Shown: in pieces, positions 1,331 to 61,953 of the stretch
Layout of the letters: the number at the start of each line of letters is the position of its first letter
Numbering within the stretch: position 1 is the first letter of the stretch
DNA from: Patescibacteria group bacterium
GTDB lineage: Bacteria > Patescibacteriota > Patescibacteriia > UBA9934
Direction of reading: 5' to 3'
Assembly (NCBI GenBank): GCA_041659765.1
Contig: JBAZXR010000001.1
Coordinates: 108,537 to 172,536 of the forward strand
Length of the DNA stretch: 64,000 nucleotides
The notes under the pieces: generated by a model
The model's database searches: none
The model's input: the letters and a program-made list of their open reading frames with translations, nothing else
What the model was told of the DNA's origin: nothing
Program-made: the position numbers and the translations under genes

Positions 1331-1412
1331 GAAAACAAAAGACCACATATCGCTCGAAAATGGAGTCGGATTACCTCCTAACATTTTCTCGCGACATGTG
1401 GCTTTTGTTTTT
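1331..1412. repeat. Conserved-loop hairpin element, copy 1. An imperfect ~30-bp stem flanks the core TGGAGTCGGATTACCTCCTAACA (1361..1383), followed by a T-run
   Basis: Inverted repeat gaaaacaaaagaccacatatcgctcgaaaa / ttttctcgcgacatgtggcttttgtttt. It sits between convergent aspS and the 1464..1883 minus-strand gene. The same 21-23 nt core recurs at 14861, 14951(rc), 43636(rc), 46550(rc) and 59801. Confidence 0.85.
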
Positions 1413-14736: not shown

Positions 14737-14805
14737 AGAAGCAAAATTGATAGCCCGAATGATACCTCATCGTCAAGCTGTGGTCGGGGGATCCGCACAT
14801 TCCCT

Positions 14806-14836
14806 CCCGAAATTTGAGTCGGGTTACCTTTTTCGG
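14806..14836. repeat. Truncated or degenerate copy of the conserved-loop hairpin element (ccgaaa / tttcgg stem, loop TTTGAGTCGGGTTACCTT)
   Basis: Contains GAGTCGGGTTACC, matching the element core, within a 6-bp stem. It abuts copy 2. Confidence 0.5.
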
Positions 14837-14910
14837 CGGTGCACCCGTTTCCGTAAAAATTGGAGTCGGATTACCTCCTAACAATTTTTCCGGAAACGGG
14901 TGCACCGCCG
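14834..14910. repeat. Conserved-loop hairpin element, copy 2 (perfect 20-bp stem cggcggtgcacccgtttccg; core 14861..14883)
   Basis: Perfect inverted repeat around TGGAGTCGGATTACCTCCTAACA. It lies in the intergenic region between topA and dprA. Confidence 0.85.
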
Positions 14911-14929
14911 AATGGGATCCTAAGCCGAA

Positions 14930-14992
14930 GGGTGATATCCAAAATAAAATGTTAGGAGGTAACCCGACTCCATTTTATTTTGGATATCACCC
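14930..14992. repeat. Conserved-loop hairpin element, copy 3, core in opposite orientation (GTTAGGAGGTAACCCGACTCC, one substitution)
   Basis: Perfect 21-bp stem gggtgatatccaaaataaaat / attttattttggatatcaccc, immediately downstream of the dprA stop. Confidence 0.85.
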
Positions 14993-23719: not shown

Positions 23720-23746
23720 TTCGTGGTAAAATGTGTGGGAGTTATG

Positions 23747-25471
23747 CTAAGCCGTTGGGCTCAGAATACGTTTGCAGTAATCCTTGTTATGGCAGGGGGC
23801 TTTTTATTTTCTGCGCCACAGGTTTTCGCTCAAGCTGATCAAACGGCTCAGGTGGCTGCTACGGCCGGGTTTGGGACAGCTGATCTACCGACTATTATTG
23901 GCCAGATCATCAGTGTTTTTCTGGGACTACTTGGCGTAGTTTTTCTGGTCCTGACTATTTACGCCGGCACCATGTGGATGACGGCCGCCGGTGATCCTAA
24001 GAAAGTTGAGAAGGCTAAGAATATTTTGATTCAGGCGGCCGTTGGGTTATTAATTACGATCAGTGCTTACGGAATCACCACCTTTATAGTCAATGCGATT
24101 ACGGGCGGAACTGGCGGCGGTGGGGGCGGGACAGGCGGTGGAAGTAATGGCGGAGTCTCGGTCGAGAGCCTGTCTGGTGCTTTGGGCGCCGGACCAATTC
24201 GCGACCATTACCCAACCAGAAATCAGACTGATGTGGCCCGGAACGCTAAAATAATGATTACGTTTAAGGAGGCCATTGACCCGGCCTCGGTGACGGTTAA
24301 TTCCGTGAAGATTTTCCCTGCCTCCACGGGTGTTACTGGTGCGCTCACGGACACGGTTATTAACTTTACAGACGATCACAAGACTTTTGTCTTTAGGCCG
24401 GCCGCCTATTTGGGCTCGCCGACCGCTAAGGTCCAGTACACCGTCCAATTAACTACTGACATTAAAAATGCCGGTGGTGCCAAGCTGTTCTCCGGCTCAT
24501 ACAGCAGTGGGTATAAGTGGTCATTTGAAACTGGCACGGTGCTTGATCTGACGCCGCCGACAATTGTGTCCGTTACTCCTGCTAACTCTGGCGCCTATGC
24601 TCGGAACATCGTAGTGCAGGCTACTTTTTCCGAACCGGTTGACCCAACTTCTGCTTCGGGCGTCCGAACATCTTCCGGAGGTTTCTCGAACATTGGGATT
24701 ACAAGTAATGCGACTGTGCAGGTGCCTGGCGAATATCAGATTTCCAATGGCTATACTTCTGTAACCTTCATCTCGGCTGAGCCTTGTGGCACTAACTCTT
24801 GCGGAGAAAAGATTGTCTGCTTGCCGGCTAGCAGCAGTTTGAATGTCACCGTTAAGGGTGCAAGTACTACGGCTAATCCTCCGCAGGCAGATACCTTTCC
24901 GTATGACGGTGTGGTAGACATGGCCGGTAATTCTTTTGATGGCAACCACGACGGCACGGCTGGAGACTTTTTTGGCTGGAGTTTTACGACCACCGGGGAT
25001 ATCGCGCTCGCGGGGCCAAAGATTGTGTCTGTTTCGCCGAATATTTCCGAAGAAGATGTGCCGCTTGATCAGCCGGTCACGATTACGTTTGGCGATGTCC
25101 TGATGACCTCTAGCGTTTCTCAAGACACAGTCCAGTTATCTAATAAAGAACAGGTGTCTGGCATTTCTCATGAAATGTGGTTTTCGCCGAGCACCTCCTA
25201 TTTGACGAGCGATGATCAGGTGGTGACTTCGGCTGCTCAGATTCCGGCCAAGACGGTGGTTGAAGTGACTCACGGAACGTTCTTGCAGTCGGTGGACGGC
25301 AAGTCATATTTGTATGGCTCGACAGTCACGAGTGGTTTGTTGAACCAGTATCAAAATTGTTATGTGCCCGGAGCGGGACCTGATGCGGTTGGCGGATTGT
25401 GCGGTGTGTCGGCCGCAGAGCCGTACTGCTGCAACGGTATCCCATCTTCCTCGGCTTGCATCCTCTTCTAA
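23747..25471 (+). CDS. Secreted surface protein with a TrbC/VirB2-like two-helix N-terminal anchor, Gly-rich linker and Ig-like (Big) domains
   Basis: Signal peptide, then two hydrophobic helices separated by GDPKKVEKAKN (VirB2/TrbC pilin-like), a G-rich stretch and beta-rich repeats. A TGnTAAAAT -10 precedes it and its stop abuts the giant gene. The track start at 23723 is possible. Confidence 0.65.
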   Translation, partial: LSRWAQNTFAVILVMAGGFLFSAPQVFAQADQTAQVAATAGFGTADLPTIIGQIISVFLGLLGVVFLVLTIYAGTMWMTAAGDPKKVEKAKNILIQAAVGLLITISAYGITTFIVNAITGGTGGGGGGTGGGSNGGVSVESLSGALGAGPIRDHYPTRNQTDVARNAKIMITFKEAIDPASVTVNSVKIFPASTGVTGALTDTVINFTDDHKTFVFRPAAYLGSPTAKVQYTVQLTTDIKNAGGAKLFSGSYSSGYKWSFETGTVLDLTPPTIVSVTPANSGAYARNIVVQATFSEPVDPTSASGVRTSSGGFSNIGITSNATVQVPGEYQISNGYTSVTFISAEPCGTNSCGEKIVCLPASSSLNVTVKGASTTANPPQADTFPYDGVVDMAGNSFDGNHDGTAGDFFGWSFTTTGDIALAGPKIVSVSPNISEEDVPLDQPVTITFGDVLMTSSVSQDTVQLSNKEQVSGISHEMWFSPSTSYLTSDDQVVTSAAQIPAKTVVEVTHGTFLQSVDGKSYLYGSTVTSGLLNQYQNCYVPGAGPDAVGGLCGVSAAEPYCCNGIPSSSACILF

Positions 25472-25477
25472 AACATT

Positions 25478-28400
25478 GTGAACATAAACCGCTTAAAACA
25501 CTTGGTTGTCGGGTTACTCGTCGCTACGAGCTCGGCTTTGCCGTTGGCTTTGCCAATGATCGCTTCCGCGCAGACGGACACGGTGACGAGCGGGCTTGAG
25601 ACCGTGGGTACAGCTACTGGTTTAGGAAATGAGGATCCGCGGATTATAGTGGCGAGAATTATTAGAGTAGTGATTTCTTCGCTCGGCGTAATCGCCGTGG
25701 TTATTGTTCTTTACGGCGGTTTCGTCTGGATGACCTCGGCTGGCAATGAAGAGAAGGTGAGTAAAGCTAAGAAGATTTTGTTGAGCGGCGGTATCGGTCT
25801 AATGATTATTCTGATGTCATGGTCCATCACCACCTTCATTATTAGTTCACTTTTGAGTGCAACTGGCGGTGGTGGTGGCGGTTCTGGCGGCGCAGGTGAC
25901 GGTGTAGGCGGAACTAGTCTGGGTGGCGGTTCTGGCAGTGGCTTTGTAGTAACCGGTATTGTTCCTAAGGGTGAGGTGACGATTAGAAATGTGCAGGTTC
26001 GTGTAACATTCTCGAAGAATGTTGATCCTGCAAGCATTGCTAACGCCTTTACGGTTAAAAATACCCTGACGGGTGCAGTCATTGCTGGTACGCCATCTGT
26101 TTCCGGAAACACCATTACTTTCAAACCTAGCACGCCTTGTTCGGACGCGGCACCAGCTCCGCTTTGTTTTGACGCGAGCACTCAGTTTACGGTCACCATG
26201 ACTACGGCCATTAAGAGTACCTCGGCGGTTGCTTTGACGTGTCCGACTAGCCGTCCCTGTGCTGGCAGCTTCACGACTGGAACTATAGTCGACGAGGTTC
26301 CGCCAACAGCTTTGATTACTGACCCTGACGCTGGACAGCGCGTGCCAGCCAATAGCTTTCAGAACGTTCAGGTGGTTGGTACTGATGATGTTGGTGTCGC
26401 TAGTGCTACCTTCTTGGCCGGTACTGTCAGTTTTGACGAAGTTCCGGCTACCGGAGCGGATCTCACGAGCGTAACAATTAGCGCTGATTGGGATACGAGC
26501 AACGAGGATGCTGGAAACTCGGTAAAATTGTCTTCCACTATTACTGACCTGGCTGGTAACACGGCTGAAGACTCAGTTGGGGTGCTCTTAGCACCAGCTT
26601 CATGCCAAAATAACGTCTTAGATTCCGGCAGTGGAGAAACGGGGATTGATTGTGGCGGTGATCCGACTAGCGCGAACTATTGTGGCGCGTGTGACGGCTC
26701 GGCTTGTACTTCTTCTACTGATTGTCAGTCCGGTTCTTGTGTGAGCGGTGTTTGTCGGGCTACGACCGTTATTAGAGCGGTTTCGCCATTGTCGGGTGCG
26801 CCTGGTACTTACGTCACAATTTCTGGTAATTCTTTTGGGGCAACGCCGGGCAAAGTTTTGTTTGTTGGTCCGGGCGCGCCAGTTGAGGCGGTTCTAGCTC
26901 CGTGTGCTGATGGTTGGACAGACCGCCAGGTAGTAGTCATGGTGCCGCCAGGTCCGGCTGGAACTGGTCCGATTACTATTGTGCGAGCAAATGCGGTAGA
27001 TGATTTTGATAAGGATTTAACTAATGATAATCGGGGTCCGCTCATTGCTAACTTCGTCGTGAACACGGTGGCGCATCCAAATCTGTGTGGTCTTTCGGCT
27101 ACCAGTGCCAAAGCTGGCGATTCGCTCACGCTTACCGGATCCGGTTTCGGCGCTAGTCGAGGGACTTCGGTAGTGGCCTTTGGTAGTAATCGTCCCGCCT
27201 CCACCTATTCGTCATGGTCTGATTCTTCCGCTCAGGTAGTGGTGCCGGTCGTAGCCTCTCGTGATGGCTCGTACGCTGTACATGTGGTTTCCGACGCCGG
27301 CATTTCGTCGAATAGCATTAGCTTACGCTTTACCTCGGCCGCTTCTTCTGGCGGATCTACAACCTCAGGTGGGACAACTACGCCGGGAGGCGTGACTACA
27401 CCAGGCGGGACTACTACTCCCGGTGGAACCACAACTCCAGGCGGAACCACTACGCCTGGCGGTTCAGCCGCCTCTGCACTTGTTCCGTCGCTCGTTTCGA
27501 TTGATCCTGGTCAGGGTGGAATAGGGCGTTACGTTAGTTTGACGGGCACAAATTTTGGTTCCGCTAAGGGGATTGTCAAGTTCACTAATACCGCGACCGG
27601 CGATACTGCGGTGGCTAGCTTGGATGTTTCTGCAGCCTGCGGTGCGGAAAACCCATGGGGTAACACGCTGATCAGATTTGTCGTTCCCGGCACCTATACA
27701 AATGGCACGGCCATCGCGGTCGCCGCACATACTGTGTCTATCACCTCAGCCAGTGGCCAGATTTCTAATACTGTTCCATTTACTATAATCGCTGATGATA
27801 CAAGACCGAATGTGTGCGGAATCGTGCCCGCTACTGGCCAGGCCGGGGATACGATAAAAATTGTTGGCGATCGGTTTGGCTCAACCAATGGCGCGGTTAC
27901 TTTTTCGTCGAGTGTGACTTCAGTCATCACCTCTTGGAGTAATACCGAAGTCAAAGTGACCGTTCCGGCCAGTGCTCAGAGCGGCAGTGTCACCCTAGCC
28001 AACGCCGCCGGAGTAAAAGGTAACAATGTTTATTTCAGCGTGGCTTCGCCTACTTCATCGGCTGGCGCGGTGGGCGGCGGCTATGCTTGGAGTTTTTCTT
28101 CCGGTTCCATTCCTAAAGTTCCAAGTTTGGTAACTGAGTGTTCGGCTTCGGTCGTTTCTGCTGTGCCGAATAACCGGTTTACGGACTCGGTTTGTACCAA
28201 TGCTGTGGTGTATGCCGAATTCACTCAGCCGATGAACCAGGCCACAGTGCAGGGTGCGGTGAAGGTTGACCGCTGTACCGGCGAAGGCTCTAACCCGTGT
28301 TCTTCGGTGATGGCGGTGACAGGTCAGACGCTCACTACTTTAAAATCTTTTACTTTTACGCCAAGCACGCCGCTGGCTATAAGTTCAACTTACCGCGTGA

Positions 28401-31400
28401 CCGTGGCCGCTACGGCTGAATCCGCCGATGGGGCAACTTTGGCTAGAGACGCTGAGTGGACTTTTGTGACAGCATCAACTAATACAGCTTGTTTAGTTGA
28501 TAGTGTCAGAGTGTCACCGGCCAAGGCGACTATTAACGTAAAGAACGGGACGGAAAGCTTCTCGGCCCTGCCGACGGCTGGTTGTGTGGTGCTTGACCCA
28601 GCTGGGGTTGAGTGGGATTGGGCACTGAATCCTAGTTTTGCGGCTCGTAATACAACGGCCAATCCGTCCTGTGTGGGCGGGTCTACGGCTTGTTTGACTG
28701 CTGAGGCTTTGGCCGAGGGTGTGACACCGGTCACGGCCACGGTGAGCAATACAGCGACAAACAGTTCAGCTAGTTTGACAATCGAGTTTACAGATCCGTA
28801 CGTCACCGGCGTTTGGCCTGATTGTGACGCCGCCTGCATGAACGCACAGATTGGGGCGAGCTTTAACATTCCAATGAATAAGCAGAGTCTTGAGGCCTCG
28901 GGGAACGTTCGGCTGTTTGAGTGTACAAACGAACTTTGCTCCGCTACTTCAGAGATTACGAGCCCGGACGCTAGATGTATGACGGTGACCGGTCAGTCTC
29001 CTGAGTGTACGGGCTTCGCCTTGAAGACCGTTACGCTCAACCCCGGTAAGTTTTATAAAGCACGGATTAGCGGCTCGGTTAGAAGCGTAAGCGGGGTGCC
29101 GTTGACTAGAACTAATGACGGAGGCGATTATTCTTGGGTGTTCCGCGCTCGGGAAGACGCTAGTGCTTGCGTGGTCAGCCGAGTTTCTATTTCTCCGGCC
29201 ACTGCTCTAGCCAAGGCGGTTGGTGACAAAACAACCTTTACGAGTACGGCCTTTGGCGAAGCTGATAGCTGTTCACAGTCTGGTCAGCGACTAACCGGCT
29301 TCTCTTACTCATGGACCTGGGCCAACCCGATTATTGATGAGGATCTGGATAGCAATCCGGCTACTAAAGTAGCAGAGTGGCTAGGTTCTTCACTTCGAGA
29401 CACTTCTCCTTCAGCTATTCCATCTGCCTGCTCCGCATCATGTACTCCTGGTGGCAGCGTGCCTTATGAAGCGATTTGCGGTGACGGGGTGCTTGATCTT
29501 ACAGGCGGCGAGGAATGTGAAGATGGCAACGTGGCCAATGGCGACGGTTGTTCAGCTTCTTGTTTGCATGAGGGGACTAGCGCGCCAACTTGTGGCAACG
29601 GCCTTATTGATACCGCCGAGGATTGCGATGACCGTAATCTGATTGATGGTGACGGTTGTTCAAATAGGTGTCAGTCCGAAGGTTCGCGCTCAGTTGGCGC
29701 AACCTGTGGAAATAATGATATCGCTCGTAACGCCACCACAAAAGCTGGCGAAGAATGTGATGATAGTAACGCTAAAAATGGTGATGGCTGTTCTTCCAAC
29801 TGTACCAATGAGGGGACACCGTCATTAGCGTCTATCGGCGGGGCGGTTTGCGGTGACCGCGTAGTCAACATACCGGGCGAGGGTTGCGACGATGGAAACA
29901 TTATTAACGGCGATGGTTGTTCGTCGGTTTGTTTGCATGAAGGCTCGCTTACGACTTGTGGAGTTGGCGGGGTTGACGCTGGCGAGGATTGTGATGATGG
30001 AAACGGGTTGAACGGTGACGGCTGTTCCTCCAGATGTTTGTTTGAGGGCTCTTCGGTGGCTTACTCGCTGCCATCTTTCTGTGGCGATGGCGTGGTTGGA
30101 ACGGGCGAATATCCGGCCTGCGAAGCTGGTGTAACAGGTGACGGTCGAATTGATCCTTTGCAAACCGCCATCATCAGTAGTGATGCAGCTTTTGAGGTAG
30201 ACTTGGCGACCAAGCGGGCGCACGCTACGGTTGAGGTTAAAGAAAACTCCTCTGGTCTATCTACTACCGCTGATCTTTCTTTGTCGTGCGTAGCCACCTC
30301 TGATGCCAGCTGTTCGGACCCTGCTCACAACGGCGTCGGTTCAGCTAGCTGCTGCATGCCACGGCCAACGGTGACGCTGATCCCAACCTCTGCTTCTACA
30401 ACCTGCCGTAATCCGGCCTTGTACGGTATCTTTTCTCAGAAGATGGATCTAGAATCATTTACTACTACCAACACTGACAGAGCGCTGACGGTTGAGACTG
30501 ACCACTTGTACCTGCAACTGGACTTGCCGGCTACCACTGCTCTTCCTGGAATGCCAGGTTCTGAGATTAGGTGTCCAAGTGGGTATCGCGTAGCTTTTGG
30601 TCATGATCCAAAGGGCTTCTTAGCTCGGGCAAAAAATACCATCGTTCGCTTCTTCGTTGGTGATTCAGCAGTCGCCGCGGAAGGTAAATGCTTGCTGCCG
30701 GTTACTGGCTACGAGCAGGTTGAACAGGACGATGGAACGTACAAAATTTATCTAAAATACGCTAAAGCGCTTGAGCCAAATGCGTCTTATACCCTTGTGG
30801 TTGATGGTGATCCAAATGTTCAAGATGGAGTAATAGTTGGAGTTACTTCAGTTTCAGGTGTTGGTTTGAACGGCACGGCCTCGTCTACATTTAGAACTGG
30901 CCCGAACCTATGTTCGTTAGATGAGGTCAAGGTGACCGACAACTACCGTGCGTCGCCCTACCTCTTTACGCGGGGTGATGAGGTGCATGCGTTTACGGCT
31001 GCAGGTATTTCTCATACGAATGGCCTAATTCAGGAAATCCAACCGATTCTCGGAGTCTACGATTGGGATTTTGATAAATGGAAGATTGCTGATGAGACCC
31101 TGTTTGGAGTGTCAGCTATCGGACCCAATATTCCTCATGACACTGTTGATATTAAATCCTTAGCGAAAAACGGCTCGACGAGTCTTTCAGCGCAGGCCAC
31201 TATTGGAGCAGACACGTTTGGCGGCACGACAGGCAAGAAAGTGATCGGTTCGACTGGGATAACGGCATTTTTATGTGAGAATCCTTGGCCGCCTCTACCT
31301 AAGTTCCCGTGGTCTGATGACCCGGCGGGCGAAGCTAACGGACTCGCATCGCAGGGGACTGAGGGCTGGATGAACATTTCTAGTTATTACTGTCGCGATC

Positions 31401-34400
31401 AGGGAGCGGTGGGCGTAGCTGCTGATCTGCCGACTGTTACGCCGGTTCGTCCGCCGGTAGCCGGAACTTCAAATATTATCAAGCAATACTTGTTTGAGGT
31501 GAGTGATGGTTCTGGCGACGCAATCGGCCTTCGAGTGGTGAGCAATCCGGGCTACCTCTCGCCGATGGCTTGGTATCGGGCTCAGAACTTCAAGGGCGGT
31601 CCCAAGGAGACTGTAGTGGATGGTTTTGCGGCGGTACAGGACGGCAGTACGGTGTATGTGGCTGCTCCTAACTATGCCAATGGCAAGTTCTATTCCAATA
31701 TCTACGTTTTGTCTGCCAATGAGGGGGCGAACGAAGCGACGCTAAAGATTTTTGCGAGCATGCTTGAGAATCTTAAGTTTGCGATTGACCTGAATGACGT
31801 GACTGTCTGTACTATTGGCGGATCCTTGTCGGATACAAGCTGCTCTTCGGATGATGATTGTCTGGCTCTTGGGGCTGGTGCAGTTTGTCCGTCTTTAAAG
31901 GCGAAGGTGCGCCGTGATACTCAGAGACTATCTGATTTGACGACTATCCGTTCAGCTATTACAGCCTACGGCGTGGATAATAGAGTATGTTCCATCACCA
32001 GGTCTCAGTCTTGCGCTTCAAATATTGAATGTCCGGTTGGCGAGTCCTGCGCATCAATTATTCCGGCGCTGTCTGCTGGAACCTTCGTGCGCAATTTCTC
32101 TGCTAGCCCGTGGACTAGCTGGGGCGACATGCTGGGTGGCGCGCTTGGCGCGAAGGAACTGCCAGTTGACCCGTTGAATGCCTTCACACCTAATACTTGC
32201 GGAGTAGTGGGTGGGCCATTAGCTAGTTTTGATCAGGCCAACTGCGTTGACCAGTCAAAGGGAACGTATACATGTCCGTTTGGTTCTCACGTGTACCAGT
32301 ATTTGGCGCAGGGAGACAGCTCGGTGAAACTATCGGCTAACCTTGAATTCTTTGAGGTGTGGGCTAGTCCAATTGATAATAATGGTTCGGCCGATGGAGT
32401 GGATATTACAGTTGGTAGAGCTAACGTGTCGGCTGATGGCTTTAGCACGGGGGACGTATGTTCAGGCGCGGTGCTTGGCAGTTCTGCCGTTTGCGGCGAC
32501 GGCGTAGTGGGCAGTGGCGAGGCCTGTGAACTTGGTCAGCGTGAGACTACAGTCGCCATCTGTGATGGTAATAATGATGGAATTATTGATGGTTTCAAGA
32601 CCAGGGTTTGTAATTCATCCTGTACCGCTTTTGTGGATGATCCTCAAGCCGTCTGCGTTTCACCTACTTGCGGGAATGCGGTCAAAGAGGGTTCTGAAGA
32701 GTGCGATGACGGTTCAAAAAATGGCTCGTACGGTTTCTGTGGAGCTGACTGTAGACGAGCCAGCGCCTTCTCTTGCGGAGATGGCTCTTTGGCCGGTGGC
32801 GAGAAATGTGATTGTGGCTCAAGCGGATCTCTGACTGGTCGTCGGGCTAATGGCAACGGCATCTGTCAGGTTTATAACGGCGTGTATCAGTCCAGTCCTT
32901 CAGCCTCATGTGCTTGGGATTGTTCCGGTCCAGCGCCATACTGCGGCGACAAGCATGTTGATAGCGGCGAACAATGCGATGGTACAGATGAGTTCTGGGA
33001 CGGAAAGTTGTGTTCAAGCGGCTCGCTGATTGGCCAGCCATGTACATCTGACAGTATGTGCGGAACCGCTGGCTTATGTGGCGGAACTAGCGCCTATGCG
33101 GCTTGTCCGGTCGGGGAGACGCGCACTCATGATTGTAATGACGCCGTGGGTGCTAGCTGTGCCTACTCAAATACTTGGCTAGCTGCTACCTGCGTCAGGG
33201 TAGGAACTTGCGGAGATGGTGTTGTCCAGAGCGGTCTAGAGCAGTGTGACGACGGAAATCAAAATGACACTGACGCCTGCACTCATTTGTGTAAGGTTAA
33301 CGTTTGCGGTGACGCTGCTCTTAACCCGCAGACAGAAGAATGTGACCTGGGCACGCAGAACGGCGGTTCTTGCAGCTCATCTTACGGCTCTACTTGCACC
33401 GCTTGTTCTGTGACCTGCCGCAACGTTATTTCATCCGGCGCGTTCTGTGGTGACGGCGTGAAGAATGGCACGGAGTTCTGTGATGGTTCTGACGTGCCAC
33501 TGACTTACTTCGATTCTGCCACCATGAAGGCCGGTGGGTCATGTGCTACGGACGGGGCAACGTCCAGCATTTATACCTGTCGTAGTTTAGGCGTGTGTAA
33601 CGGTGGAGCTAAGAATGGTCAGCTCTGTACAGCCGGATATATTGGTAGCACTGGTCCTGATTCCTACGCTCTTGATGTAGCTGACTGTACAGATTTAACC
33701 GGCAGTTACGAATGCGTTAAGCCGGCTTGTTCCGGTACTTGTTCTTCCTCCTGCCCGCTAACCTTTGCTAGTACCAGCTTGCTCATGACAGCTAATCAGC
33801 CAGGTTCGCGCCCAAGCCCAAGTGTCGATCTCTACTCGTACAACACGAGCTCTACCTCAACTCTGCCCAACGCGGCTACTATTACGGTTCCTGCTTGTAC
33901 GGTATTGCCCTCGGTTTCCGCGAACATCCGTTACGCCGAGAACTATGAACCACCGCAGGTGTACGTGATGTTCATCACTGATCTTTCGCAAACGATGAAA
34001 TACCGGGTCCGTGACGATGTTCTTCCTGGTTCAGGCGAAAAATCTCGGTTGGCTGTGGCGCAGGCTTCCATGGACTCAGCAACTGCAAGTTTGTATGAGA
34101 AGTTTGGTGCTAACGTGCATATCGGTTCGATCGGCTTCAAAGGTTTGGCGCAAGGAACTTGCTACAATAAAACCAACACATCCTGCACGGCGGGGACGGC
34201 TGCGGGCGATACTACTTGTTCAAACTTAACTCCGGGTGACTTCTGCTTGGACAAAACATCTCAGATTTCTGCTTCAACTATTACCTATCCGTTCGGTGAT
34301 ATCTATAGCTATAAGCTTGCTGATAGCACGGGGGCGTATTCGTTCGCTGATCAGCCGCAGATGTCTTCGCTAGTTTCGGCTATTGACTCAATGTTCGTTG

Positions 34401-35020
34401 ACAAAACGGGACCAACTGGTTGTACATCTAGTCCTTGTCAGTCAACAAATATCCATGGGACGAGAACTTATGAAGGTTTGGTTGAAGCTCGTCAGATGTT
34501 TAAGAAGATTAATGATTTGTCGACCACGGATAAGACTAATACCCGGTACATCGGGATCCTGCTATCTGATGGCGAGTATACGAACACAGACCCGCTCATT
34601 GAAGCAGCTGCATGGAAGGATAAATACGAGCTTTATACGGCCACAATCGGCAATGATTCGGCGTTCATTGCGCAGATGAACAGGTGGTCGACGAATAGTT
34701 GGGATGGAACTACGGCCAACACGAGTTCTGACACGTACAATGGCGTTGATTATTCCTTTACGGCATCAACGGATACGCAATTAACGGGCATTTATAGCCA
34801 GATAGTTAATACGATCCAAAATATTAGCGTTAAACTGGTTGTTGATAGTGGAGCTGCCTCGACTAGCGTGAATACTGGAAACGGAATCTCGCTCGTTTTG
34901 CCGCAAGGCTTTGCCTGCGACAAGCTTCACTCACAGAACGTGCCTATTCAGGTGACCTTTGCAGGCAAGGGGCAAATGACTATTAGTGACGTGCGTGTAA
35001 ATTATTGTGCGGCTCCATAG
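25478..35020 (+). CDS. Giant (3180 aa) VirB2/TrbC-anchored surface protein with Ig-like/IPT domains, Myxococcus-type cysteine-rich repeats (DUF4215-like) and a vWA domain with MIDAS
   Basis: GTG start 7 nt after the upstream stop. Its N-terminus is paralogous to the 23747 gene. It has IPT/Big-like segments, a (TTPGG)n linker, about six CG(D/N)GxxDxxEECDDGNxxxGDGCSxxC repeats (aa ~1330-1530) plus a second array (aa ~2340-2660), and DxSxS (ITDLSQTM) of a vWA/MIDAS at aa ~2830. Confidence 0.75.
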
Positions 35021-43565: not shown

Positions 43566-43567
43566 GA

Positions 43568-43600
43568 AAGTCGCTTCCTTTACGGAGGCGATTTTCATTT
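43568..43600 (+). terminator. Terminator hairpin after tRNA-Asp (tcgcttcc tttac ggaggcga + T-run)
   Basis: 8-bp stem with one mismatch, followed by TTTT. Confidence 0.4.
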
Positions 43601-43609
43601 TCTTCAAAA

Positions 43610-43682
43610 GCAGATGAATATCCTGTTGAGAAAATGTTAGGAGGTAATCCGACTCCATTTTCGAGACAGGAGATTCATCTGC
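43610..43682. repeat. Conserved-loop hairpin element, copy 4 (core GTTAGGAGGTAATCCGACTCC at 43636..43656)
   Basis: Stem gcagatgaatatcctg / acaggagattcatctgc, between tRNA-Asp and the convergent 43736..45175 gene. Confidence 0.85.
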
Positions 43683-43735
43683 TTAAAAAAAGAAGTCGGA
43701 GATCCGCGTGGGGATCTCCGACCGTTACGTTCTGG

Positions 43736-46472: not shown

Positions 46473-46530
46473 GGCCGTGGGGTTAATTGGTCGAAAGTAT
46501 AGGTAAGGAATGTGTTTTTGTCGAGCTGGA

Positions 46531-46589
46531 GGATATGTTCGAAAAATTTGTTAGGAGGTAATCCGACTCCAAATTTTTTGGACATATCC
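46531..46589. repeat. Conserved-loop hairpin element, copy 5 (core 46550..46570, rc orientation)
   Basis: Stem ggatatgttcgaaaaatttg / caaattttttggacatatcc, located between ssrA and infC. Confidence 0.85.
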
Positions 46590-46603
46590 GTAAGCTCTAA
46601 CAA

Positions 46604-46632
46604 TTGGTGGACCACGTCGTTCGCGAACGACG
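46604..46632 (-). terminator. Palindromic terminator hairpin (ccacgtcgttcg cgaacgacgtgg) immediately 3' of tmRNA
   Basis: 12-bp perfect palindrome abutting the CCA end of ssrA on the minus strand. Confidence 0.55.
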
Positions 46633-47027
46633 TGGTGGACCTGGCGGGAGTTGAACCCGCGTCCGAAAGTGATTAGAGAATGACTTGTTACATGCTTTGC
46701 CCGGCTGGGTAATGAAATCGCTCGAGCCGAGCAAAAGACGATTTCATATGTCTCTGAACCGTAATCGCAGTGAAGGCAGAGACGCCCTATACTGCACAGT
46801 CAGTCTTTATAGCACCCGGACTCTTCCCGATTGACATGGAAGGCGGATGTGGCAAGGGCGCTTAGGCCGTGGCCATGGAAAGTGATGGGGCAAATGCGAA
46901 ACGCATTGCTTCCTTCACCTTAGAGAATACATTGGCGTGTATGTCGTTGTACCAGGTGATACGGAGTCCGGTACCTCTCCTGCATGATCATTTCCCCTCA
47001 CAGCTTTCGTCGAAGCCTGGCAGGCCC
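46633..47027 (-). ncRNA. ssrA: tmRNA (SsrA), ~395 nt
   Basis: Reverse complement begins GGGCCUGCCAGGCUUCGACG and ends GGACGCGGGUUCAACUCCCGCCAGGUCCACCA. The acceptor stem GGGCCUG/CAGGUCC includes the G3-U70 wobble, with T-arm GCGGG-UUCAACU-CCCGC. An internal ORF ends ...SLSMATA-UAA. It lies directly downstream of smpB. Confidence 0.85.
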
Positions 47028-47032
47028 AGCAT

Positions 47033-47482
47033 CTATACATCGAACTCACTATGTCGTCGCACGTCGCGGTCAAGGTCTCGCTGTTTGATGCTATCCCGTT
47101 TTTCGAATTGCTTCTTACCTCGGGCTAGCGCGAACTTGACCTTAACAAGCGACCGCGCAGTATAGAGCGAAAGTGGGACAATAGTCAACCGTTCAATTTC
47201 CCGTTTTGCTTGAAGTTTAGCAATTTCTTTTTTGTTGACCAAGACCACTCTATCCCTGATGGGATTATAGGCTTCCAGATGTCCGGCCGGAGCGTATGCA
47301 CCTATGTGCATGCCTTTGAGAATCAACTGTCCTCGTTCGACTAATAGAAAAGCGCCTTTGAGGTTTACGTTTCCACCTTTGGCTGATTTTACTTCCGCGC
47401 CAGTCAGCACTAAGCCGCCCTCGAAAGTTTCCAGGATTTCAAAGTCGTGCAGGGCTTTGCGGTTTTGGGCTAAGTCAGCCAT
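47033..47482 (-). CDS. smpB: SsrA-binding protein SmpB
   Basis: 149 aa with the conserved SmpB core (GAEVKS, RVVLVNKKEIAKL). Confidence 0.9.
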   Translation of the reverse strand: MADLAQNRKALHDFEILETFEGGLVLTGAEVKSAKGGNVNLKGAFLLVERGQLILKGMHIGAYAPAGHLEAYNPIRDRVVLVNKKEIAKLQAKREIERLTIVPLSLYTARSLVKVKFALARGKKQFEKRDSIKQRDLDRDVRRHSEFDV

Positions 47483-51220: not shown

Positions 51221-52381
51221 ATGTTGACCATGATCCTGTGCGTCTTGACGAATTTTGCTCTGGCGACCGGCCCTGCGCCGACGCCTCCGGCCGCCACCGA
51301 GCCGGCCCCTGCGGTTTTGGTCGAGCCCCCGGATGAAAAGCCGGAGTGCAAGATCCAGGACGCCTGCACGGAGGCCGAACTGGCCGCGATGAAGCTGTGG
51401 ATGGCGGACATGGATGCCTGGCGCGCCCGTATGGGCAAGCCGAGCGCCACGACCGTCGAATTCCGCAAGAAGGTGGCGTGGTTGTGCGCTCAGCACAACG
51501 ACTGCCTCGACCCTGTCGCGGCAGCCCCGGCAGTCACGCGGCCGCCGGTGGTCACGCCCGTGGAGCCGCCCAAGAAGACCCCCCTCGAACAGCTCAAGGG
51601 GATCGTGACCGGTACGCCGAAGCCCGACGAGGGCGGAACGCGGCCGAGCCCGGACATGCCGACGACCATCGATCCGACGCCGACGATGCCGAGCGCAACT
51701 GCGACGGGTGGCCAGGCCACCGCCACGAACATCGTGGAAACGGTGGAACCAGCCACGACGGTCGAGCCCGGTCCGTCGAGCGCCTCCATCACCCGCACGG
51801 TGACGGAAGCGGACGGCCCCCGGCTCGGTCCCATCGCTGGGATCGAGTTCGTGCGCCAGGCTGAGATCCGCGGCGTGACCGCTCCGAGCATGCTCACTGA
51901 GCTGATCGGTGCGTCCCTCCGTCTGGGTGACAGCCATGGTCCGTTCGTGTCCGGTCGAGGCGCAGGCTTCGTCGGTTCGGAAGGGGCGCAGGGCGCGCTC
52001 GGTGGTCTGACCATCGGTGCCGGCCTGGACGGCCTGCTGGAATTCGGGGTTCTCTCCGAGTTCTACGTGTACGAGGTGCGCGGTGCTGGCGAACGGAGCA
52101 ATCCGTACGTCCAGGCCAAGTACTCCGGCCTCCGTAACGGCTTGAGCCTCTCGCTCTCGCCGGGTTCGGAAGACCGCGTCCTCCTCACCGCCAGTGGCTC
52201 CGTCGACCTGTTCCATGGTCGGGTGGAGACCAAGGACGGCCGGTGGGCGGACCTGTCGCCCACGCTCGGCCTCAGCCTCACCTGGTTCCCGAAGATCAGC
52301 GATCGGACGGAAACGGTGACGGTCACCGGTATGGCTTCGGACTCGAAGCCGCCCCGTGGTCAGGAAGTCCCGCTGCACTAG
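51221..52381 (+). CDS. Secreted Pro/Thr-rich protein with C-terminal beta-rich domain (high-GC island gene 1)
   Basis: Signal peptide (MLTMILCVLTNFALA), PAPTPP linkers, a Cys pair and a Gly/Ser-rich alternating C-terminus. SD GGAGGG precedes it. The coding sequence is much more G+C rich than its neighbours. Confidence 0.6.
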   Translation: MLTMILCVLTNFALATGPAPTPPAATEPAPAVLVEPPDEKPECKIQDACTEAELAAMKLWMADMDAWRARMGKPSATTVEFRKKVAWLCAQHNDCLDPVAAAPAVTRPPVVTPVEPPKKTPLEQLKGIVTGTPKPDEGGTRPSPDMPTTIDPTPTMPSATATGGQATATNIVETVEPATTVEPGPSSASITRTVTEADGPRLGPIAGIEFVRQAEIRGVTAPSMLTELIGASLRLGDSHGPFVSGRGAGFVGSEGAQGALGGLTIGAGLDGLLEFGVLSEFYVYEVRGAGERSNPYVQAKYSGLRNGLSLSLSPGSEDRVLLTASGSVDLFHGRVETKDGRWADLSPTLGLSLTWFPKISDRTETVTVTGMASDSKPPRGQEVPLH

Positions 52382-52401
52382 CGGGCAATCGAATGGGCGG
52401 C

Positions 52402-52438
52402 GGCTCTGGTGAAGGATCGAATCCTTGTCACCAGAGCC
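52402..52438 (+). terminator. Long GC-rich hairpin (ggctctggtga...tcaccagagcc) after island gene 1
   Basis: ~16-bp stem. No T-run follows, which is typical of high-GC donor-type terminators. Confidence 0.4.
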
Positions 52439-52459
52439 GTCGCACCTCTCTTTCAATGA

Positions 52460-52488
52460 TTGACAAAAGTCTAAAAATCTGCTATAGT
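52460..52488 (+). promoter_or_regulatory. Promoter P4 (TTGACA - AAAGTCTAAAAATCTGC - TATAGT)
   Basis: Shared promoter consensus inside the high-GC island, followed by a ~180-nt structured 5' UTR. Confidence 0.65.
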
Positions 52489-52671
52489 AGTTCGTTACAG
52501 AATTAGTGAAATCCCGTGATGTTAGCGCATGAAGTTCATGCCCTGACATCGCCGGATTTCTCTCACGGCGATAAGCGAGTAATCGCGAATTGCTTGTGAG
52601 AGAGTGTTCCGGAGTGTTCCTTTCCTGCTAGACAAACAACCCGGGCCATCGTGCCCTATACGAGGTGACTA

Positions 52672-54225
52672 ATGTCACGCTTTGCAACGATTGCTGTTCT
52701 GTTCTTGGGTGCGTGCGGTGGGCAGTTCGCCCCCGACGAAATCGAGACCGGCGGCAACGACACCGGTTCCAACGCTGACGCCGACACCGACGCCGACTCG
52801 GACTCCGATACGGACTCCGATACGGACGCCGACGCCGACGTCGACACGGGCACCAACGAGGTCCCGTTCTACGACATCGACGGCGACGGGCGCGAGGACA
52901 AGCCGGCCACGGACGGCCTCATCCCGGTTGGGATGAACGTCTCGATCGCCGAGTTCAACACGCCGCCCGCGTTCCTGGACGAGTTGTACTTCGTTCCGTA
53001 CGGCGAGAACTGCAGCACCAGCTACAAGCTGTGGCGCGTCACGACCGTCGACGGCGCGGGCTACTTCGCCTGGACGCTCCGGAGCAATACCGGAACGATC
53101 GCAGGGAACGTCCGCAAGGTCACCTGGAACGAAGACGGCAGCTGCTACCTGGACGACGGATCGCTCGACTTCTGGGGCAACCTGGAAGCGGACAACATGG
53201 TCGGTGATCCGGCCATCGTTCCGAGCCTCGTGGACACCTACGAGGACGAGCAGACCCACGAGGTCAAGCACCGCATGATGGTGTGCCTCGAAGTCCGCGG
53301 CATGAGCACGATCCCGGGCAACCCGCTCGCCTGCCAGCAGATGCAGCAGGACGCTGGGCCGGTCGTGGATCCGGTCGAGACCATCTGGTACCGCGACTTC
53401 GACAACGACGGGTACGGCGATGCGGGAACCACCAAGTGGTCCGTGGCGCAGCCGGCAGAATACATCGGAGTCCCCGGCGATTGCTGGGATGACAACGACG
53501 AGGTTCACCCCGGTGCGACCGAAGTGGTCGATGGCCTCGACAACGACTGCGACGTGGTCAAGGACTGCGCCGACGCGAACGTGTCGAAGGTCTCGGAGAT
53601 CACGGGCGACGGCTACGACAACGACTGCAACACGTCGACGTCGGACACCGTTCCCTCGGCTACCCCGACCGACTGGTACCTGGACTCGGACGGCGACGGC
53701 TTCGGCAGCGCAGTCTCGAAGCTCTCGGCCGTGGCGCAGCCTGCGGGCTACGTCAGCAACGGCACCGACTGCGACGATGCGAAGAGGGACCGCTTCCCCG
53801 GCGCGACCGAGATCGCGGGCGACGGCATCGACCAGGACTGCAACGGCAGCGACCTGGCGACGGTACCTTCGGGTGACGGCCGCACGCTCGGCACGTGGAC
53901 CTTCACGTTGGATTCCAACGTGTCGGCGAGCGTGACCCAGTTCGAGATCCGGAACACGACCGCGAGCACCGTGGTCAGCCAGCTCAGCCGGAGCGGCAAC
54001 GTCTTCACCGTGCAGATCATGGGGAAGACGGGGGACGATCTGTCCGCGCAGTGCTGGTACACGAAGCCGGACGGGGTCACCGAGTGGTGCGCAAGCAACA
54101 ACCACTCGGGCAAGATCCTCTCGGCCACCGGTCCCGGCGGCGCGTACACGGTCGGTCAGCTCACGGGCGACTTCAAGTACGCCTCCGTGGACTCCGGTAA
54201 GCGGTACAACGGCAAGGTCAAGTAA
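52672..54225 (+). CDS. Lipoprotein with poly-Asp/Thr/Ser acidic linker and MopE-like putative metal-binding repeats (high-GC island gene 2)
   Basis: Lipobox LFLGAC, a (DxDx)n acidic tract, and repeats DNDGYGDAG...PGDCWDDNDEVHPGATEVVDGLDNDCD and DSDGDGFG...GTDCDDAKRDRFPGATEIAGDGIDQDCNG. Confidence 0.65.
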   Translation: MSRFATIAVLFLGACGGQFAPDEIETGGNDTGSNADADTDADSDSDTDSDTDADADVDTGTNEVPFYDIDGDGREDKPATDGLIPVGMNVSIAEFNTPPAFLDELYFVPYGENCSTSYKLWRVTTVDGAGYFAWTLRSNTGTIAGNVRKVTWNEDGSCYLDDGSLDFWGNLEADNMVGDPAIVPSLVDTYEDEQTHEVKHRMMVCLEVRGMSTIPGNPLACQQMQQDAGPVVDPVETIWYRDFDNDGYGDAGTTKWSVAQPAEYIGVPGDCWDDNDEVHPGATEVVDGLDNDCDVVKDCADANVSKVSEITGDGYDNDCNTSTSDTVPSATPTDWYLDSDGDGFGSAVSKLSAVAQPAGYVSNGTDCDDAKRDRFPGATEIAGDGIDQDCNGSDLATVPSGDGRTLGTWTFTLDSNVSASVTQFEIRNTTASTVVSQLSRSGNVFTVQIMGKTGDDLSAQCWYTKPDGVTEWCASNNHSGKILSATGPGGAYTVGQLTGDFKYASVDSGKRYNGKVK

Positions 54226-54250
54226 GCTAGGCATTCGGCCTGGCACGTAA

Positions 54251-54300
54251 AAGGGCGGCTATCGCGAGACATCATCGCGAAGCCGCCCTTCTTCTATTTT
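54251..54300 (+). terminator. Terminator after island gene 2 (aagggcggc ... gccgccctt + T-rich)
   Basis: 9-bp stem enclosing an inner hairpin, followed by a T-rich stretch. Confidence 0.5.
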
Positions 54301-54314
54301 AGGGGTTGTCAGGC

Positions 54315-54343
54315 TTGACGAAAGCCATTTTTTAGACTACAGT
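54315..54343 (+). promoter_or_regulatory. Promoter P5 (TTGACG - AAAGCCATTTTTTAGAC - TACAGT)
   Basis: A diverged copy of the shared promoter. Confidence 0.55.
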
Positions 54344-54384
54344 TCTCGGTCCGTTCGGATAGCATCCGTCGGCAAGGAGGACTC

Positions 54385-55621: not shown

Positions 55622-55642
55622 GGAGTTCGGTATACTGTCAGC

Positions 55643-59366: not shown

Positions 59367-59771
59367 ATGTCCGACGAAATGAAGTCAGTTGAGGTGCCAG
59401 CTAAGTTCTCCGCTTTGGTCGAATCTATTGAAAAGATGTCCGTTCTTGACTTGGCAGAACTCGTGAAGGTTTTGGAAGGAAAGTTTGGCGTGTCCGCTTC
59501 CGCTCCAGCTATGATGATGGCTGCTCCAGCTGCTGGTGGCGCCGCTGCCGCAGAAGAGAAGTCCTCTTTCACGGTTGAATTGACCTCCGCTGGCGAGAGC
59601 AAGATCAACGTGATCAAGGTCGTTCGTGAAATCACGGGTCTTGGACTTAAGGAAGCTAAGGACATTGTAGACGCTGCTCCAAAGGCAGTGAAGGAAGGCG
59701 CAAGCAAGGCAGAAGCAGAAGACATGCAGAAGAAGATCGAAGCCGCTGGCGGTAAGGTCACCTTGAAGTAA
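59367..59771 (+). CDS. rplL: 50S ribosomal protein L7/L12
   Basis: N-terminal dimerisation region, an Ala/Pro hinge and a C-terminal domain ([16 protein letters not shown]). Confidence 0.9.
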
Positions 59772-59853
59772 GCAAAACAAAATAGCACTCTCTCTCGGAA
59801 ATGGAGTCGGATTACCTCCTAACATTTCCTCGAAAGAGTGCTTTTTGTTTTGC
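59772..59853. repeat. Conserved-loop hairpin element, copy 6 (core 59802..59823)
   Basis: Stem agcaaaacaaaatagcactc / gagtgctttttgttttgct. It exactly fills the gap between the rplL stop and the stop of the convergent 59854 gene. Confidence 0.85.
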
Positions 59854-61953
59854 TTACTTCACCAGGTGGTCGGCGGTAAATCCGAGTGCTTTGTCGCCGG
59901 TGACGACTATGATGCGGTTTGCAGATTCCTCGACGGTGAAGCCGACGGCGTTTTTGAAGCTGTCATTTGTGTATTGTGCTTCTAGGTTGCCTGTTGTTTT
60001 ATCAAGGACCACTACGCGACTAGTGCCTGGATCGAGGACGTATAGATATTTACTAGCAACGTCTGTCCAGATGTCTGTTGGATTTATGAGAGCCGGATCA
60101 AAGCTGGCGTGAGTCCAGGCGACTTCTTTGCCAGCATGGAACTTCACGACGTCATGCTTGAGGAGCACATATACGTCGCCGTCAATCGTCAGCGCTTGGG
60201 CGGTAGAAAGATCGCTGTCCTTGGAGATGATCCAAGGTGTACCCGCTTCATAGGCGGTGCCGATGGGGCGCATCTTTACAATCTGTCCGCTGCCGGCCGA
60301 GAGCGCGTAGAGGTTTGAGCCGTAGGTAATGATGTCTTCAACGCTGAGCATGGCGTTCGTGCCGCTTTGGAGCGGGTTTACGGTGTGGGCGGTGAGATCA
60401 ACGCGGCCGAGCTGTTTGTTCAAATCCATGACGAGCGCGTTGCCGCCTTCCGGGGTCATGCTACGGACGGATTCCAGGATTCCCTTCGTAGCTTCTTCTT
60501 TTGTCCAGGCACTCTTAAGTCCGTCTAAACGGTAAACGTCCAGATTTGAGGTAATGGCGAATAGCGAACCGCTGGTTTCCGTGATGCTCGTGATCCCGTT
60601 GCCGTTCGCGCTATCCGCCATGGTGGCGAGTGTTTGCGGACTGACGGCGATGATGCCTCTGATTTTATCTTCGACCACGTGAAGTTTGACTAACAGATCA
60701 GTCACCTGCTTTTTTTGATCGGCAGTATTTTTTGGCAGTGTTTCTAAGATGCTTTGGGCTTCTGTCAGGGATTTTCTCGCTTCTTCCGTGTTGCGGTAGA
60801 TCAAGCTAGCTTGAGCGGCCAGAATTCGGTCATCAATGCTCTTAACCGTCTGTGAGAACTGGAGCTCGGCTTTGGCTCGTTCGCCTCTGCCTTTTGAGAG
60901 GTAGAAGAGGCCGGTACCGAGCACGATGACGAGCAGGATAGAGAAGAGAATGCCGGCCCGGAGGGGAGTTATTACGGGAGCGCCTTTTCGGCCCTTGGTG
61001 TTGGCGAGGAAGATATTGGAAGCTAAGGCGGCTACTGCAGTGAAGGTTTTTTGAGCCAGAGTGAGCATTAACGCTAAGCCGCGTTTTAAAATGGCTACGG
61101 CGCCTCTAGTTCCCGGCGCGGAGAGTGATTGGCGAATGCTTTGGGTGACATTTTTTACCAGACTGGAGAGCTCGGTGTTTGATTCGCCGAGCACATTGGC
61201 GGTTCTGTCTTTTGATGATTGCAAAGCGGTTAGTGAACCGATCGGGTTGGCTTTTTTTGGAGGGCCGGACGGTTTTTCTTCTTCCGCAAAGGAGAAGCTT
61301 ACGGCCGCGTAGACATCCCCCGGCGGAACGAACTGTTTGATTCGTTGGAGGGCTGAGGCCGGGGGGAGCGTGACTAAGATGTCATGCAGTTCGTCTGATC
61401 TGAGAGCGTGAGTCGAAACGGGCGTGGCGACATAAAAAACATCACCGCCGTGGGTTTCGCCGTCTAGGATAGTGTGAAAATACCTAGGGTCATCCGGGGT
61501 TCGTCCCTCTCCAAACTGATCATGAAGCTCGTAGACGCTAAAGCGCTTATCTGCGGTTTTGTGCAGAAAGAGAGCATCGATATTGCCGATGCCGGAGAAA
61601 AAAATCTGGTCTCTAGTGGCCATGCCAACCACGCCCTGCACTTGAATCATTTTCAAGTTCATCTCATGGGCTGCGGCGAGTAAATCTGTGTTCAAAGCAC
61701 CTAACATTTGTTCGAATCTACGGGCCGAGTTTAATTCCGAGGAAGCGTCAGCGGAAAGATGTTCAAGATGACTGGCGGTCATGTGTAGCAGGCGATCTCG
61801 ACCTTCTTCATCCTTGGAATCAATCACCATGACGCCAAAAATCGCACTCTTTCCTCCGGGGAGAGAGTGAAGCATTGTTTTGGCGCCCATCTGCGGACGC
61901 TGGGGGAGCACAAGCAGCTCGCCACTTTTCACGCTGTGTTGGTATTCCGCCAT
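59854..61953 (-). CDS. Hypothetical bitopic membrane protein: ~330 aa cytoplasmic domain, TM helix, coiled-coil, beta-rich extracellular C-terminal domain
   Basis: 699 aa with a single TM (ILFSILLVIVLGTGLFYL). No catalytic motif recognised. Confidence 0.5.
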   Translation of the reverse strand: MAEYQHSVKSGELLVLPQRPQMGAKTMLHSLPGGKSAIFGVMVIDSKDEEGRDRLLHMTASHLEHLSADASSELNSARRFEQMLGALNTDLLAAAHEMNLKMIQVQGVVGMATRDQIFFSGIGNIDALFLHKTADKRFSVYELHDQFGEGRTPDDPRYFHTILDGETHGGDVFYVATPVSTHALRSDELHDILVTLPPASALQRIKQFVPPGDVYAAVSFSFAEEEKPSGPPKKANPIGSLTALQSSKDRTANVLGESNTELSSLVKNVTQSIRQSLSAPGTRGAVAILKRGLALMLTLAQKTFTAVAALASNIFLANTKGRKGAPVITPLRAGILFSILLVIVLGTGLFYLSKGRGERAKAELQFSQTVKSIDDRILAAQASLIYRNTEEARKSLTEAQSILETLPKNTADQKKQVTDLLVKLHVVEDKIRGIIAVSPQTLATMADSANGNGITSITETSGSLFAITSNLDVYRLDGLKSAWTKEEATKGILESVRSMTPEGGNALVMDLNKQLGRVDLTAHTVNPLQSGTNAMLSVEDIITYGSNLYALSAGSGQIVKMRPIGTAYEAGTPWIISKDSDLSTAQALTIDGDVYVLLKHDVVKFHAGKEVAWTHASFDPALINPTDIWTDVASKYLYVLDPGTSRVVVLDKTTGNLEAQYTNDSFKNAVGFTVEESANRIIVVTGDKALGFTADHLVK

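Follow-up and report, generated by a model that had tools for sequence, protein, structure and literature searches.

A family of extragenic palindromic repeats with a conserved hairpin tip, possibly REP-like, in a Patescibacteria genome

Introduction

What kind of element are the hairpins that recur, around a near-identical 21-nt core, in the gaps between housekeeping genes of a Patescibacteria genome? CPR (Patescibacteria) genomes are tiny and tightly packed, and most intergenic gaps in the stretch of DNA analysed here, 64,000 nt in length and referred to throughout as the window, are shorter than 40 nt. Against this background, one would not expect a single repeat family to occupy about one third of the large gaps. 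It is also unexpected that the repeat has remained intact while the genes flanking it have diverged to around 70% DNA identity.

Copies of the repeat and their setting

The core reads GGAGTCGGATTACCTCCTAAC on the strand designated F and GTTAGGAGGTAATCCGACTCC on strand R. The 21-mer is present exactly in copies w1, w2, w4, w5 and w6, and with a single mismatch in w3 (Table 1), whereas 100 dinucleotide-preserving shuffles of the window yielded no match. The six copies with a near-identical core and one A>G change that were described in an initial annotation of this DNA are thus borne out, and a long inverted repeat is centred on every one of them. The truncated copy placed by the same annotation near 14806-14836 is also real, its span being that given in Table 1. 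Copy w6 was reproduced base for base in an independent Logan assembly (SRR18595301), and the repeat is therefore not an assembly artefact; one contig of that assembly breaks inside the core of w1, as expected for a repeated k-mer.

Table 1. Hairpins of the repeat family in the window, with their cores and immediate surroundings
Feature	Span	Strand	Core	Remarks
w1	1331..1412	-	1362-1382 (+)	GGAG... on +; better-folding strand -; hairpin begins 2 nt past the aspS stop codon; arms bear A and T tracts
Remnant	14786..14828	-	positions 2-14 (GAGTCGGGTTACC)	truncated: one arm and part of the core; ortholog of hairpin 'b' in the MAG (L021) and L007
w2	14832..14912	-	14862-14882 (+)	31-nt arms, 97% complementary; second hairpin in the dprA-topA spacer; orthologs in L006 and L008
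w3	14930..14992	+	14951-14971 (-)	A9>G; perfect 22-bp stem; directly 3' of dprA; inverted relative to w2
w4	43608..43684	+	43636-43656 (-)	flanked by the tRNA-Asp terminator (43566-43596, +) and the terminator of a 479-aa gene (43694-43723, -)
w5	46523..46597	+	46550-46570 (-)	flanked by the tmRNA 3' hairpin (46606-46641) and the -35 box of the infC promoter (46524-46496)
w6	59764..59861	-	59803-59823 (+)	arms reach 8 nt into rplL and 8 nt into a convergent 699-aa ORF

As had been claimed, the copies fill intergenic gaps: all of them are intergenic, their neighbours being aspS, topA, dprA, infC, smpB, rplL and the tmRNA gene, and the family has a density of about one copy per 10 kb. The further claim that they lie mostly between convergent genes applies to three of the five sites; copies w2 and w3 (dprA-topA) and w5 (tmRNA-infC) are found between co-directional genes. 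At w6, rplL and the 699-aa ORF both end in GAAGTAA within the arms, such that both ORFs take their final codons and their stop from the palindrome. The 699-aa ORF, which follows rplL in the 59367-61953 region in convergent orientation, has no family match and is not rpoB or rpoC.

Structure of the hairpin

The initial annotation had taken the conserved 21 nt for a loop. Covariation, counted on a 20-copy alignment of sequences from the window and its relatives, contradicts this. Core positions 1 and 21 form a G-C pair in 17 copies and a U-A pair in three, with T1...A21 found in L007 and in two copies of a related metagenome-assembled genome (MAG), whilst positions 3 and 18 form A-U in 15 copies and G-C in five, the entire L008 lineage carrying G2>T, A3>G and T18>C. 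Pairs 4-17, 7-14 and 8-13 are invariant G-C. Free variation in the core is limited to positions 9-12 (ATTA, GTTA or AGTA), and in one copy (L008 9774-9847, the same as L012 9118-9191) a 13-nt insert, CGCACAAGGCGGG, replaces the apical tetraloop and leaves both halves of the core intact. The covarying pairs and the variable apex thus indicate that the conserved 21 nt are an apical helix with 2x2 and 2x1 internal loops, capped by a tetraloop, and minimum-free-energy folds yield the same core structure.

Each copy is an imperfect palindrome of 65-100 nt in which a conserved module of approximately 45-55 nt forms the hairpin tip. Read from the tip outward on the R strand, this module comprises the variable tetraloop, two G-C pairs, a tandem G·A/A·G mismatch, G-C and A-U pairs, the 2x1 internal loop, a G-C pair, an A/U helix of 5-7 bp and a second tandem G·A mismatch, followed by 3-5 bp that include a U·G wobble, below which the locus-specific outer stem begins. 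Conservation is highest at the tip and falls toward the foot; the feet are rich in GG.../...CC and have no tetranucleotide in common. A K-turn or box C/D reading of the GUUAGGA/CCGA segment was rejected by hand, there being Watson-Crick pairs on both sides of the tandem G·A and no 3-nt bulge where one is required. A GAGTC (PleI/N.BstNBI-type) site at the tip was also rejected, as it is lost in the L008 lineage.

The stems were originally reported to covary, and they do: the proportion of paired cells in the arms is 90% (63% in shuffles), and both sides are changed in 157 cells (46 in shuffles). The tip is far better conserved than the arms, in which pairing is kept via double changes, and simple duplication is insufficient to account for the family, as had been argued. 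The description of the stems as unrelated is correct for part of their length. Over the outermost 20 nt, window copies compared two by two are mostly no more alike than shuffles, the exceptions being 1/6, 3/5 and 4/6. The inner 12-17 nt beside the core are, however, homologous among copies and follow a degenerate consensus with conserved irregularities. Moving outward from the core, every copy has an A/T helix of 4-7 bp and a tandem mismatch, with ATRTCC.../...GRACAT in most of them; the exception is the MAG copy L002, where a GC-rich GGCT/AGCC segment takes the place of the A/T helix. The locus-specific part of the arms is confined to the outer 8-20 bp.

Strand asymmetry

When each left arm is matched to the reverse complement of its right arm, the irregularities of the stem prove to be strand-specific. 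Almost every transition mismatch is G·U when read on R, the F strand having A·C; R has 20 G·U cells in all and F four, and within columns 9-14 the figures are 17 and none. The mismatches beside the A/T run, which read TC/TC on F, are GA/AG on R, and the GA/AG motif is repeated within the core (GGAG/CGAC). What appear on F as CTCG...CTCG 'direct repeats' are, on R, C-G, G·A, A·G and G-C, and in L011 the closing pairs become U-A (TGAA...TGAA) with GA/AG retained. An interpretation of CTCG...CTCG as a target-site duplication was rejected, since the central TC (GA on R) is invariant and the closing pairs covary. In RNA folding R is better than F by 4-10 kcal/mol in nearly all imperfect copies, and for the three copies that were folded as DNA its advantage is 1.4-3.3 kcal/mol.

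The asymmetry goes with the element itself and is unrelated to the direction in which the host transcribes or replicates the DNA. Among independent co-directional loci the F strand is sense at four and the R strand at four. GC skew is positive in every 4-kb bin of 1-64000, whatever the gene strand, which places the window on one replichore with + as the leading strand; the R strand of w1 to w6 nevertheless reads -, -, +, +, + and -, and a replication-strand explanation of copy orientation was rejected on these grounds.

Distribution in a single clade

Homologs of TopA and SmpB put the window in the Patescibacteria, near the Uhrbacteria. An SmpB with 100% identity to that of the window (47033-47482) is encoded on a Patescibacteria MAG contig of 897 kb. 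The exact core was found in one of 185,579 GTDB representative genomes, a related MAG, and had no match in JGI metagenome contigs or IMG/VR. A degenerate core pattern recovered five metagenome loci, all from one sister lineage, and no viral match. Syntenic loci of relatives were fetched via the TopA and SmpB proteins. All of the closer relatives, as judged by TopA identity (L006, 93%; the MAG, 90%; L007, 89%; L008, 83%), have the element, whilst more distant ones (75-78%) have a dprA-topA spacer of 36-38 nt that is devoid of it. Sequences used as outgroups include GCA_023246145.1 and a JGI contig of 586 kb. The family is thus confined to about one genus-level clade. The MAG GCA_964348985.1 (CAYGEQ01; L001-L005, L015 and L021) is titled 'uncultured Gammaproteobacteria'; its TopA and SmpB are 90-95% identical to those of the window, and their other homologs are labelled Patescibacteria where named, suggesting that the title is probably wrong.

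A covariance model run over 246 kb of the clade scored intact copies at 62-83 bits; in all, the model gave 25 matches to intact copies in relatives (23 + 2), some of them from overlapping loci. Besides intact copies it detected one truncated remnant and one variant hairpin; no half-decayed copy was found in the 246 kb, and the one outgroup locus searched gave no match. With no decayed copies other than the remnant and the variant, maintenance by selection, conversion or a partner protein is implied, and a purely selfish element would be expected to look otherwise. The variant (L017 10857-10930; L018 7705-7778) occupies the tmRNA-infC site of an organism of the L007 lineage and is a distinct hairpin of 28 bp, the 14-nt loop of which reads UAGGAGGCGAAAAC. 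Its five G·U pairs are all on one strand (-41.1 versus -30.0 kcal/mol), and it may be a diverged relative of the repeat family.

An Rfam scan of the window at the gathering threshold passed only tRNAs and tmRNA, and permissive searches with the hairpins gave generic miRNA-precursor-like matches of 10-38 bits against thresholds of 38-139. A full-text literature search with the core sequence returned no paper, nor did a literature search return one connecting REP-like repeats with CPR bacteria.

Turnover and concerted evolution

Close relatives differ from one another through the gain, loss, truncation and overwriting of copies. The dprA-topA spacer contains one to three hairpins in the clade, compared with 36-38 nt in outgroups: in the window these are hairpin a, a w2-type hairpin and the remnant of b; in L006 the w2-type alone; in the MAG and L007, a and b; and in L008, a (with the apical insertion) and the w2-type. 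L007 has a copy between hflX and a pilin gene, in a block that also holds an ordinary terminator. This copy is missing from the window, L006 and the MAG, where the hflX stop codon is 3 nt from the next start and the genes are directly adjacent. The tmRNA-infC spacer is different in each lineage, to the point of being unalignable, and contig 40 of the MAG has an N-run exactly at this spacer, where the window carries w5. No target-site duplication was found, and there was no clean pair of empty and filled sites at the aspS 3' end, hflX-pilin or tmRNA-infC; at the aspS 3' end gene content is different in the L008 lineage.

The flanks identify two pairs of loci as orthologous, one lying downstream of murA (L003/L010) and the other between adk and map (L004/L014). 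The same three core substitutions are seen in each of the three orthologous pairs that include the L008 lineage, and the arms of these pairs differ at 41-57% of ungapped positions. The arms of L004 match those of its paralog L003 at 51 of 56 positions, as opposed to 40 of 56 for its own ortholog L014, and L003 and L004 are near-identical over the whole hairpin, with homology ending at its foot. Judged from these alignments, the pattern is one of concerted evolution with occasional whole-hairpin overwriting. The possibility that L001 is the rplL ortholog of w6 was considered and rejected; tblastx finds no genes common to the two loci, and L001 is therefore a paralog.

Role in transcription termination

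The hairpins had been described as probable bidirectional terminators. This is plausible for w1 and w6, which have A-tract and T-tract arms and for which no other hairpin is present to serve aspS or rplL. Like intrinsic terminators, w1, w6 and L001 have the arrangement A-tract, stem, T-tract, lie between convergent genes and are accompanied by no other hairpin, and their outer arms resemble the ordinary terminators of the genome, of the form CAAAAG-stem-CTTTTG. The role does not extend to the family as a whole. A T-run is missing from half of the copies, including w2, w3 and w5, and a consensus terminator scan called none of the copies, whereas it did call canonical convergent terminators on both sides of w4, in a zone that is expected to be transcriptionally quiet. 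Intrinsic terminators differ further in having a loop of 3-8 nt in place of a conserved module of 45-55 nt, and w4 and w5 stand beside separate canonical terminators.

Sigma-70-like promoters are present upstream of topA (TTGACG...TATCAA, 14737-14790, identified by eye) and infC (TCGACA-17-TATACT, 46496-46524, identified by scan), and both start no more than a few bases away from the foot of the neighbouring hairpin. The leaders of topA and several other genes are very short or absent, and many genes in the window overlap by 4 nt. The tmRNA (46633-47027, -) has an unusual predicted tag, ANVFSKVKEAMRFAFAPSLSMATA, which ends in ATA and not the usual LAA, and its 3' end lies within an 18-bp near-perfect palindrome (46606-46641).

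Candidate explanations

An asymmetry that is unrelated to transcription or replication, together with the turnover, overwriting and clade restriction of the copies, points to propagation or homogenisation at the DNA level by a dedicated factor. The reading that we favour, to which a probability of about 0.5 is attached, is that the family consists of clade-specific REP-like extragenic palindromic repeats in a genus of Patescibacteria related to the Uhrbacteria. Each copy would be a dispersed DNA repeat that a putative protein recognises, and copies or homogenises, in the form of a folded single strand. The bound form is most likely to be R-strand ssDNA, and the protein a dedicated, structure-specific one, comparable to the RAYT-type HUH transposases that act on REPs and REPINs; ectopic conversion between copies would keep the core uniform, and w1 and w6 may have been co-opted as bidirectional terminators. 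A search for Y1/HUH transposases with phmmer and three Y1 queries gave no match in 303 kb (including duplicate loci and one outgroup locus), a weak negative given that less than 10% of the 897-kb source genome was covered. No transposase of any kind was seen among the ORFs scanned with Pfam or NCBIfam, the neighbours of the copies being housekeeping genes.

A more tentative suggestion, to which we give rather low weight, is that of a REPIN-like 'nested replicator' of different construction in an ultra-small CPR genome. Here a putative and possibly non-HUH protein would recognise a structured single-strand module, in which two tandem G·A motifs and a bulge are spaced by one helical turn, and would both maintain and rewrite the copies, such that the core, and sometimes the whole hairpin, is overwritten in concert at old, orthologous loci while the outer stems remain locus-specific.

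The main rival of the REP-like reading, although an unlikely one, is that the element acts in cis as RNA. The hairpin would then be transcribed at gene 3' ends, and a host RNA-binding protein or RNase would bind its conserved tip, with the tandem G·A motifs and the small bulge, so as to stabilise, process or terminate transcripts or insulate downstream promoters; the concerted changes in the core would reflect co-evolution with the protein. Sequence alone does not separate ssDNA from RNA, and G·U wobbles and tandem G·A mismatches, which are classic RNA features, are at least as typical of the latter. Every copy is at a gene end or before a promoter, the near absence of decayed copies suggests selection at each locus, and the terminator-like tracts of w1 and w6, where no alternative terminator exists, also speak for it. 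The orientation of the copies argues against it, however. At w3, w5, L004/L014, L007a and L007c the strand that folds better runs antisense to the genes on either side, whereas at other loci it is sense, in keeping with the four-to-four split noted above. Moreover, there is no conserved promoter, w4 lies between two canonical terminators, Rfam yields no match beyond generic hairpins far under threshold, and one orthologous locus has had its arms replaced with those of a paralog, which is how a DNA repeat behaves.

A further reading, an improbable one, is that ectopic gene conversion alone keeps the tips identical and that the copies are otherwise long terminator or insulator hairpins of the ordinary sort, with neither a dedicated trans-acting factor nor mobility. 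There is evidence of conversion or overwriting, and the outer arms of w1, w6 and L001 resemble those of ordinary terminators. Nevertheless, at 21-33 nt the common core is short for conversion of the RecA type, T-runs are absent from half of the copies, and this explanation accounts neither for the strand-specific non-Watson-Crick features and the clade restriction nor for new copies at sites that are spacer-free in relatives.

A DNA-uptake signal of the DUS/USS kind, in which lineage 'dialects' arise by biased uptake and homologous recombination during natural transformation, appears very improbable. DUS of Neisseria are often located within terminators, the core evolves in concert at orthologous loci, both orientations are present, and the genome has competence-type genes such as dprA. 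The repeat is found, however, about once per 10 kb and only between genes, against roughly once per kb, genes included, for DUS/USS, and its motif is always part of an elaborate strand-specific hairpin, for which a double-stranded uptake signal would have no need.

Least credible of all is the initial proposal that the core is an anti-SD mimic or SD decoy shown on terminator hairpins, whatever the appeal of AGGAGGU on the R strand and of GGAUUACCUCCUAA on the F strand, which agrees at 12 of 14 positions with the E. coli 16S tail. Shine-Dalgarno sequences are hardly used by the host: GGAGG occurs within 20 nt upstream of one of 53 predicted starts, which is background level, and its genome-wide count of 128, against 144 expected, shows neither avoidance nor enrichment. 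In addition, the CCTCC/GGAGG segment sits inside the covariation-supported helix, no start codon follows the SD-like sequence, and orientation is unrelated to transcription. The resemblance to the 16S tail also fades in sister lineages, where some of the bases concerned change with their pairing (CCTCCTAA to CCTCCCAA, matched by A3>G) and others vary freely at the apex (GGATTACC, GGAGTACC and GGGTTACC).

Comparison with known systems

The REP/REPIN-RAYT systems of Proteobacteria, which typically have a single-copy RAYT (Y1 HUH) gene flanked by repeats, provide the closest frame for the REP-like reading. REPINs have been described as joining a conserved part to one that is conserved only in pairing, with flanking A/T runs that may be co-opted for attenuation, and as persisting over the long term, by vertical inheritance, together with a RAYT (PMC3337134). 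The present repeats are likewise short, imperfect, dispersed extragenic palindromes, often just after stop codons, with A and T runs at their flanks and sometimes a terminator role; they too combine a conserved part with one conserved only for pairing, are inherited vertically with lineage variants and imply recognition of a folded single strand. They differ in geometry, the tip being conserved and the foot variable, in contrast to the conserved ends and variable central spacer of REPINs. They also have no GTAG head, their density is far lower, the host is a CPR bacterium with a genome of around 0.9 Mb, and no RAYT was found. Most copies are singlets; inverted doublets are seen at one locus, dprA-topA, in four lineages (w3/w2 and the a/b pairs of the MAG, L007 and L008).

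MITEs and PATEs derived from IS200/IS605 share with the repeat a small, non-coding, hairpin-forming character, presence/absence polymorphism and strand-specific structure. The present family, however, lacks terminal inverted repeats and an accompanying target-site duplication, a search for a parent IS was negative in the ORFs scanned, and a single hairpin replaces distinct left and right ends. Integron attC sites are also hairpins at gene 3' ends in which structure takes precedence over sequence and one functional strand is marked by unpaired or extrahelical bases. Unlike the present family, they conserve the base (the R''/R' boxes) and vary the tip, and they occur in one-directional cassette arrays beside an integrase gene, whereas the copies here are scattered among housekeeping genes. 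TIGR units, which have been reported in CPR bacteria, form tandem arrays beside a tas gene, which encodes a Nop domain, with two variable spacers of 8-12 nt in the loop that are flanked by box C/D (PMC12045711). TIGR-Tas elements are similar in having variable palindromic stems and short conserved motifs near the loop, but the copies here are dispersed and have an invariant tip of 19-21 nt; a TIGR-Tas stem-loop array was rejected, as there are neither arrays nor variable spacers.

Small extragenic palindromic repeats are a known kind of element, seen here with a tip-conserved geometry and in a CPR genome. If a partner protein exists, long-term associations of repeat and host of the REPIN-RAYT type would extend to a very different phylum and to another geometry, and the family would offer a simple system for studying the concerted evolution of dispersed short repeats. 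At a practical level, the repeats break short-read assemblies, as seen from the contig end in a core and the N-run at an orthologous site, and core variants could serve as lineage markers.

Other features of the window

Two features of the window elsewhere may be recorded. Positions 52001-56000 form a GC-rich island (0.60 versus approximately 0.52) in which the ORFs at 52672-54225 (+) and 52675-54246 (-) fully overlap, the former encoding MopE-like Cu-binding motifs. At 25478-35020 (+) there is an ORF of 3180 aa, located directly after a T4SS_pilin/Big_5-type gene (23723-25471).
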